64,000 nt of DNA from a virus (Duplodnaviria; Heunggongvirae; Uroviricota; Caudoviricetes): the IMG/VR virus record IMGVR_UViG_3300045988_154477, one strand, 5' to 3'. Made by a program: the position numbers and the translations under genes. Within the stretch, counting starts at the first letter, position 1. Each line of letters begins with the position of its first letter. The notes beneath the pieces were generated by a model. That model did not search any database, was not told where the DNA came from, and was given only the letters and a program-made list of their open reading frames with translations. Below are positions 25,603 to 26,191 of the stretch, one piece after another.

Positions 25603-25914
25603 TTAGTTACCGCTAATAGCTCGGTTGTAATCATTAACGTTGCGATTCTTCCTGTTAATCCCCATCAGCATCGTTTCTGTATCGAGGATATACGCTGGCA
25701 GATCATCAAAATATTCACTGCTAAACTCTGGCATCCTGCACATAAATGCACTTTTGGGGGCAGGGTGGTTAACCTTTGTCGGCGTCGGCGTTAAATTCGC
25801 TGATCGACTCCCGGAGCAACCGCTGAGTGTCAGCAGGAATACGCTGGCGAACATTACCCGCCGCAACCAGTTGTTTCTGAACTTCAGCTTTTCGTTCCAT
25901 TTGCCTGTCAGCAT
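25603..25914 (-). CDS. outer-membrane lipoprotein (o-spanin-like); start uncertain (25854, 25914 or 25935)
   Basis: Lipobox LTLSG-C; mature part Pro-rich with one Cys; overlaps 3' end of upstream gene in another frame. Confidence 0.4.
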   Translation of the reverse strand: MLTGKWNEKLKFRNNWLRRVMFASVFLLTLSGCSGSRSANLTPTPTKVNHPAPKSAFMCRMPEFSSEYFDDLPAYILDTETMLMGINRKNRNVNDYNRAISGN

Positions 25915-26191
25915 ACTTGGCTTGTTCTGATTCATTTTTCACTTCCTGGCTGTGAAAATGTTGCTCTGCTTTGTTCATCGTCTCAATGGTCTGGTTAAGA
26001 TCCATTATTGACTTATCACGTTCCTTAACAGCCTGATCAAGACTGCCAATTTTCTCTATGGCTTGCTTTAGCTGATGACGTTCCCATGCAAACCCAGCAC
26101 CAACAAGTGCGCAAATCAGAACAAGAACACCAGTAGCAGCAAGTTTCTCCTTCAAAGACAAAGCTGTTTTTAACGTAGAAAAGAATGACAT
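25769..26191 (-). CDS. type II membrane coiled-coil protein (i-spanin-like), 140 aa
   Basis: AGGAGGAA SD; N-terminal TM LAATGVLVLICALVGAGFAW then coiled coil. Confidence 0.4.
   Translation of the reverse strand: MSFFSTLKTALSLKEKLAATGVLVLICALVGAGFAWERHQLKQAIEKIGSLDQAVKERDKSIMDLNQTIETMNKAEQHFHSQEVKNESEQAKYADRQMERKAEVQKQLVAAGNVRQRIPADTQRLLRESISEFNADADKG

Follow-up and report, generated by a model that had tools for sequence, protein, structure and literature searches.

Two overlapping open reading frames (ORFs) on the minus strand, at 25603-26191 of a 64,000-nt stretch of viral DNA that was analysed at full length (the window), are laid out like an i-spanin/o-spanin pair, yet they lie beside a plasmid replicon and far from any lysis genes. 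Do they encode the spanin of the phage or an envelope module with another task? The window is part of a P1-type phage-plasmid, the locus being 97.4% identical to phage P1 DNA (NC_005856, 62851-65151). Comparison with the P1 annotation, which the original prediction had proposed as a check, matched the two ORFs to P1 ppfA (P1_gp064, 140 aa) and mlp (P1_gp063, 110 aa). PpfA and Mlp are each 100% identical to their P1 counterparts, and the 589 nt of the pair differ from P1 at 1 nucleotide, a synonymous change. The Shine–Dalgarno (SD) sites, start codons and cleavage position are those recorded for P1 in Kongari 2018 Table S1 (PMC6139136). Elsewhere the element does depart from P1, ParA being only 57% and UpfB 93% identical. 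One flank of the pair carries P1 parB, parA, repA/oriR and upfA, and the other upfB, upfC, uhr, hrdC and dmt. ppfA/mlp are present in 22 phage records and at least 80 IMG/VR contigs and are carried by 650 PLSDB plasmids. The RefSeq annotation of P1 attaches the spanin name to mlp only; the remark made on ppfA in the P1 annotation is 'possible periplasmic function'.

Profile searches linked both proteins to the lysis pair LysB/LysC of phage P2. Residues 21-139 of PpfA matched the PHROGs family phrog_89 ('Rz-like spanin') at 5.1e-25, and P2 LysB matched the same family at 5.8e-61. Mlp matched phrog_30284 at 6.5e-79 and phrog_456 at 2.7e-5, while P2 LysC matched phrog_456 at 1.7e-31 and, reciprocally, the Mlp family phrog_30284 at 5.4e-4. 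Mlp and LysC could also be aligned directly by BLASTP (37% over 68 aa, pairwise E 1e-7), the alignment spanning the signal peptide, a TPxP stretch and a Cys-x-Met-Pro ((L/M)C-x-MP) motif. For PpfA the pairwise comparisons were not significant: its alignment gave an hhalign probability below 2% against the single sequences of P2 LysB and lambda Rz, and BLASTP against LysB gave an E of 58. It is thus the PHROG profile that carries the i-spanin link. The best NCBIfam matches were LysB for PpfA (0.0023) and P2_Rz1 for Mlp (0.026), both below the equivalog cut-offs (18.2 bits against 92.75 for TIGR03495 and 14.7 against 27 for NF038368), and Pfam returned nothing meaningful for either protein. On these comparisons the P1 pair is remotely homologous to P2 LysB/LysC and falls outside the P2 equivalog families. 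The PpfA family is narrow, since 1.84 billion representatives, searched exhaustively with HMMER, yielded only 37 matches, among which P0078, P0084 and P0093 are full-length diverged homologues. P0078 lies in a 94-kb P1-like Pantoea element with the same synteny as P1, so that no member of the family was found in a classical lysis cassette; a search of viral contigs for the context of P0084 found nothing.

The likeness to P2 extends to gene organisation. LysB is likewise a type II membrane protein of ~140 aa, with a +1 lipoprotein gene that starts within the 3' end of lysB and runs past it, and both pairs adjoin tail genes (R and S in P2). The P2 pair differs in belonging to a lysis cassette, directly after holin Y, endolysin K and lysA, whereas ppfA/mlp have no linkage to lyz or lydA/B/D/E in P1; Mlp differs from LysC in its signal sequence of 39 residues. 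Lambda Rz/Rz1 resembles PpfA/Mlp in the +1 frame relation, in the topology predicted for each partner, in a helical periplasmic domain that is interrupted by a break, and in a lipoprotein that contains Pro and a periplasmic Cys. Rz1, however, is entirely embedded in Rz, whereas mlp extends past ppfA; unlike Rz, PpfA has no periplasmic Cys; and Mlp lacks the penta-proline stretch of Rz1 and has a mature part of 71 aa against 40 aa. No significant sequence similarity was found between Rz/Rz1 and PpfA/Mlp, and the lambda proteins belong to different PHROGs (phrog_13 for Rz and phrog_3198 for Rz1).

The pair has a single transmembrane domain (TMD), a helical periplasmic domain, a lipobox followed by Ser at +2, a +1 overlap and a Cys in at least one subunit, and thereby matches every sequence criterion tested for the overlapped i-spanin/o-spanin architecture that the original prediction had proposed. 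The usual, non-obligatory position in or next to a holin–endolysin cassette is not seen. Linkage is not among the criteria of Kongari 2018, which builds on membrane-localisation signals and gene arrangement; its Table S1 lists P1 gp064 as an overlapped i-spanin and gp063 as an overlapped o-spanin, in a family named 'P1' (PMC6139136). Bednarek 2022, in its passage on the pair, credits the identification to Summer 2007; it describes the pair as an unlinked operon without experimental verification and swaps the i- and o- labels. Taking sequence features, LysB/LysC homology and published assignment together, we consider it very likely that ppfA and mlp form the two-component spanin of P1-type phages, in the overlapped arrangement. 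This reading is already known, and ours is a correct re-identification rather than a new one. The abstract of Summer 2007 reportedly places P1 among phages that had previously been without annotated Rz/Rz1 equivalents. With the assignment already in the literature and in a spanin database, little is at stake for discovery, and the residual value is practical: this is a predicted spanin pair in a paradigm phage, and in hundreds of P1-like phage-plasmid records it is labelled 'ppfA' or 'hypothetical protein' or is missed.

The location of the pair needs explaining. It had been placed between repA/oriR and a PAAR-like gene, which is accurate as a position, except that upfA and upfB intervene. ppfA and mlp are genes three and four of a co-directional five-gene cluster on the minus strand, upfC-upfB-ppfA-mlp-upfA, in which upfC occupies 27028-27312, upfB 26231-27076 (its true start is probably at 27019) and upfA 25199-25591. 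The gaps are short, 39 nt between upfB and ppfA and 11 nt between the mlp stop and upfA, and the cluster is ended before oriR by a terminator-like hairpin and T-run on the same strand (25164-25184; a 9-bp stem with 5 GC pairs, then TTTCACTTAT). The gene order is kept in all five diverged elements described below, the upfA slot being variable. The first gene product, UpfC, has PAAR matches and a published HHpred match as a tail-spike tip, is dispensable on deletion according to published work, and was modelled in a 2026 cryo-EM structure of the P1 baseplate as a spike tip resembling gp5.4. The same structure assigns UpfB (phrog_1559) as a tripod anchored on this spike tip. We rejected upfC as a secretion-system gene, because UpfC scored 36.4 bits against the T6SS_PAAR model (cut-off 124) and the cryo-EM structure places it in the P1 virion. 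Since upfC and upfB encode the P1 tail-spike tip, the pair lies in a cluster of virion genes and not in the replicon, which partly explains its odd location. Because UpfC and UpfB are virion baseplate proteins, late co-expression of the pair, or its expression during lytic growth, is also plausible.

As had been noted at the outset, the pair lies far from any lysis cassette: blastn and tblastn with P1 lyz and lydA/B/D/E as queries detected no homologue in the 64-kb window. In P1 these genes map at 20-31 kb, outside the portion represented in the window. A search upstream of the cluster for an Lpa-type late promoter (AAGTnACTT-N4-TAnnnT, a consensus built from LPlyz and LPdar) gave no match, and late timing of the pair is therefore something that we infer. 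The promoters predicted for the cluster are of the sigma-70 type, comprising a weak sigma-70-like site at 27351-27323 and two predictions inside upfB in the P1 annotation. Two published P1 RNA-seq studies do not mention ppfA or mlp in their main text.

Such a setting could also suit a pair with no part in lysis, either an envelope module for lysogenic conversion or superinfection exclusion, like Cor, Llp or Bor, or an accessory to the puncturing device of the tail tip, whose genes lie just upstream; its likeness to spanins would be ancestral only. The absence of linkage to lyz and lydA/B/D/E, the position between the plasmid replicon on one side and the tail-tip genes upfC/upfB on the other, and the purely sigma-70-type promoters all fit this idea. 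So does a genome-wide CRISPRi knock-down study of P1vir, in which the efficiency of plating was 1.3 and 1.2 for ppfA and 0.24 and 0.19 for mlp, making both non-essential for plaques; lambda Rz was scored essential in the same study. The authors of that study urge caution in interpretation. The knock-down of ppfA/mlp may have been incomplete. In lambda, spanin defects are conditional on divalent cations and the absence of shear. Bednarek 2022 likewise describes spanin defects as classically conditional, so that non-essentiality for plaques is what a spanin pair would be expected to show. Against a role outside lysis stand the homology of both partners to the P2 lysis pair in an identical overlapped +1 arrangement, the strict co-conservation of ppfA and mlp as a pair, the lack of any mention of PpfA or Mlp in the P1 virion cryo-EM and LC-MS/MS papers, and the P1 row of Kongari Table S1, which holds no further spanin candidate (PMC6139136). 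We regard this alternative as unlikely. Somewhat different is the idea that the pair of the P1 lineage is not, or not only, a lysis spanin, and that a membrane-bridging module was co-opted for another envelope task, linked to the tail-tip genes that it always accompanies or to the plasmid-prophage state. Room for it is left by the permanent separation from holin and endolysin genes, by the clustering with upfC/upfB down to 34% PpfA identity, by the missing Lpa late promoter and by the dispensability for plaques; we hold it to be decidedly unlikely.

In the favoured spanin assignment, PpfA (25769-26191, minus strand) is the predicted i-spanin. Its ATG at 26191 is preceded by ttcAGGAGGaagacATG, and the ribosome-binding site (26192-26205, minus strand; AGGAGG with a 5-nt spacer) is the one recorded in Kongari Table S1 (PMC6139136). 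The sole hydrophobic segment spans residues 17-35 (LAATGVLVLICALVGAGFA; Kyte–Doolittle 19-residue mean 2.35), and 35% of the remaining 103 residues carry a charge. The flanks of the segment show a weak charge bias (net +2 on the N-terminal and +1 on the C-terminal side); its positive-inside sense points to a type II (N-in, C-out) orientation. AlphaFold2, run with a 15-sequence alignment, predicted two helices, 13-110 and 120-137, joined by a loop (111-119), with moderate confidence (mean pLDDT 69). A heptad pattern was detectable only at ~43-75, and its score, on a crude heptad measure, was matched by 16 of 500 shuffles, so a coiled coil is plausible with modest support. Many i-spanins have one coiled-coil prediction or none (Kongari 2018, PMC6139136). 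The sequence contains no periplasmic Cys, in agreement with the published count for P1. PpfA had been described as a 140-aa type II membrane coiled-coil protein with a strong SD; length, SD, N-terminal anchor and helical domain stand, and the coiled coil is the part that is upheld only modestly.

PpfA could alternatively be a secreted periplasmic protein that bridges no membranes, its N-terminus being a cleaved signal peptide. The annotated 'possible periplasmic function', the weak charge bias and the small residues GAG near the end of the hydrophobic segment would be compatible with cleavage. However, the stretch measures 19-20 residues, a length usual among signal anchors and long by the standard of cleaved signals; it is scored as a TMD in Kongari's table (PMC6139136), it is kept in all PpfA homologues, and the phrog_89 match begins inside it, at residue 21. 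The cleaved-signal reading was rejected on these grounds and is, in our view, very improbable.

The partner in the predicted spanin pair, Mlp, is a 110-aa lipoprotein precursor and putative o-spanin (25603-25935, minus strand) whose ribosome-binding site, AGGAAG (GGAAGTGA; 25936-25950, minus strand), lies within ppfA. In the precursor, a long N-terminal region of basic character and a hydrophobic stretch lead up to the lipobox LTLSG-C with Cys40, which makes the signal sequence 39 residues long. Kongari 2018 Table S1 gives the LipoP cleavage of P1 gp063 at residue 39, flags the P1 o-spanin with 'Too long signal sequence' and counts a single periplasmic Cys in the o-spanin but none in the i-spanin (PMC6139136). 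The mature N-terminus of Mlp reads CSGS, with Ser at +2, and homologues have C-S-G or C-S-Q. Sorting by the +2 residue through the Lol system is an established rule for E. coli lipoproteins; lacking a Lol-avoidance Asp at this position, Mlp is predicted to reach the outer membrane. The mature part of 71 aa contains 6 Pro (8.5%), four of which fall in LTPTPTKVNHPAPK. Its only other Cys, C66, is invariant in all six lineages compared, within the motif FMC(R/T)MP. The lipobox and the single Cys were therefore correctly called from the start, and the description of the mature part as Pro-rich was mildly overstated (6 of 71 residues).

Membrane fusion has been shown for lambda Rz/Rz1 (summarised in Kongari 2018, PMC6139136), and by analogy we infer a similar topology, complex formation, fusion activity and late expression for PpfA/Mlp. 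PpfA would be fixed in the inner membrane by its N-terminal anchor and project ~100 mostly helical residues into the periplasm. Mlp would be exported, lipidated on Cys40 and, because its +2 residue is Ser and not Asp, carried by Lol sorting to the outer membrane, and would probably dimerise by a disulfide through Cys66. The two proteins would join via their periplasmic ends into a bridge that passes through the peptidoglycan. Degradation of the wall by the SAR endolysin Lyz, which the LydA holin system releases, would then free the PpfA–Mlp complexes to fuse the inner and outer membranes and thereby remove the last barrier to virion release.

mlp lies in frame +1 relative to ppfA, shares 167 nt with it and continues for 166 nt past the ppfA stop, so that the lipoprotein gene does start inside the 3' end of its partner in another frame and run past it, as originally described. 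The dual-coding segment (25769-25935, minus strand) specifies the last 55 PpfA residues in frame 0 and, in the +1 frame, the Mlp signal sequence with the first ~16 mature residues. When viral contigs were scanned with the PpfA alignment, every locus recovered was P1-like and 97-100% identical, and diverged loci were therefore taken from contigs encoding homologues. The resulting set comprised four P1-like elements of Cronobacter, Salmonella and Klebsiella, in which PpfA identity is 59-66%, and a 94-kb one of Pantoea, in which it is 34%. The +1 ORF is open in all five, with an identical end point in the four enterobacterial ones, and each retains a lipobox in the form LSAC, LNGC or LNAC; LNGC is a recorded o-spanin variant (Kongari 2018, PMC6139136). 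The first mlp ATG is kept in every diverged element and is the sole start codon common to all six lineages, which supports the unusually long 39-residue signal sequence. The SD before this ATG is AGGAAG in the window and a stronger AGGAGGTGA in both enterobacterial elements compared at this site (L082 and L085); the Pantoea element (L088) has only AGGAAG at a spacing of 7 nt, a weak site.

Conservation of the product points the same way. In the four enterobacterial elements identity stands at 78-79% for mature Mlp, against 48-58% for the non-overlapped part of PpfA, and the corresponding values for the Pantoea element are 56% and 32%. Across the diverged elements, the 54 non-overlapped codons of mlp carry 15-25 synonymous-only and 9-11 non-synonymous differences, and the ratio is reversed in the non-overlapped part of ppfA. 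The non-overlapped part of mlp thus shows, in its codon differences, a signature of purifying selection, and mlp is on this comparative evidence a real gene. That it might be a chance open frame inside and beyond ppfA, as could be suggested by four public contigs in which gene callers either skip it or annotate no more than a 46-52-aa tail and by the lack of a Pfam match, is refuted by five diverged elements that retain its lipobox, its C66 and its first ATG, the SD sites, the higher conservation of mature Mlp, the excess of synonymous differences and the homology to P2 LysC, and is hardly credible. Conservation of both frames, the first ATG, the lipobox and Cys66 provides a firm basis for annotating both genes together with the 39-residue signal sequence. 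Within the overlap of the four enterobacterial elements, PpfA is 78-80% identical and the Mlp signal (residues 1-39) 37-45%, which argues for selection acting mainly on the PpfA frame; the shared DNA would thus code at once for an i-spanin C-terminus under constraint and for a signal peptide that tolerates change.

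In the window element, RepA, UpfA, UpfC, PpfA and Mlp are each 100% identical to their counterparts in phage P1, whereas ParA shares only 57% identity with P1 ParA (403 versus 398 amino acids). Judged from these identities, the partition module, which comprises parA (22415-23626, minus strand) and parB (21453-22418, minus strand), is an exchanged unit; the window element is thus a mosaic of a P1 replicon and a partition system of a non-P1 type. Within the upfC-upfB-ppfA-mlp-upfA cluster, UpfB is 92.9% identical to P1 UpfB and all neighbours of upfB are 100% identical. UpfB is the tail-tip 'tripod' in a 2026 cryo-EM structure, and the variable gene of the cluster therefore encodes a protein at the extreme tip of the tail.

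The annotated upfB (26231-27076, minus strand) starts at 27076, which creates a 49-nt overlap with upfC and leaves the start codon without a Shine-Dalgarno site. An alternative ATG at 27019 (minus strand), corresponding to M20 and giving the N-terminus MLEKDYQ, lies 8 nt past the upfC stop codon and has TAGGAGAT 5' of it. This start agrees with the homologue N-termini in the diverged P1-like element L082 and the Pantoea element L088, as well as with the start of the PHROG profile. In its annotated P1 form, upfB probably includes 19 surplus codons at the 5' end.

On the replicon side of the predicted spanin pair ppfA/mlp, the gene content of P1-like elements marks the slot up to the replicon as a variable region. 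Where P1 has upfA following mlp, the diverged elements have a Phage_gp49_66-family gene unrelated to upfA (5600-5959 in L082, 5600-5953 in L083 and 5601-5966 in L085) or no gene (L084), and the Pantoea element carries several additional genes between mlp and repA. In the window, a terminator-like hairpin (25164-25184, minus strand; 9-bp stem and T-run) is located between the cluster and oriR, 15 nt past the upfA stop codon. At the other end of the cluster, no Lpa-dependent late promoter (AAGTnACTT-N4-TAnnnT) was found 5' of upfC in the scanned region 27313-27420 (minus strand), where the sole promoter-like site is a weak TTAAAA-17-AATAAT at 27351-27323. The window does contain perfect matches to the late-promoter consensus at two other places, 1907 and 21256 (both minus strand). 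The cluster, lacking such a promoter upstream, nonetheless encodes two virion proteins.

Public records describe the ppfA/mlp pair unevenly. RefSeq P1 names mlp 'Rz-like spanin' and ppfA still just 'PpfA', most plasmid records in PLSDB tag the pair as 'ppfA' or 'hypothetical protein', and in L082-L085 mlp is either omitted by gene callers or reduced to a non-overlapped tail of 46-52 amino acids. The i- and o-spanin labels of the P1 pair are swapped in Bednarek 2022.

The late-promoter scan also brought up, as a palindromic near-match, the loxP site at 63798-63835 (ATAACTTCGTATA-GCATACAT-TATACGAAGTTAT), which places the P1 map origin at the end of the window.
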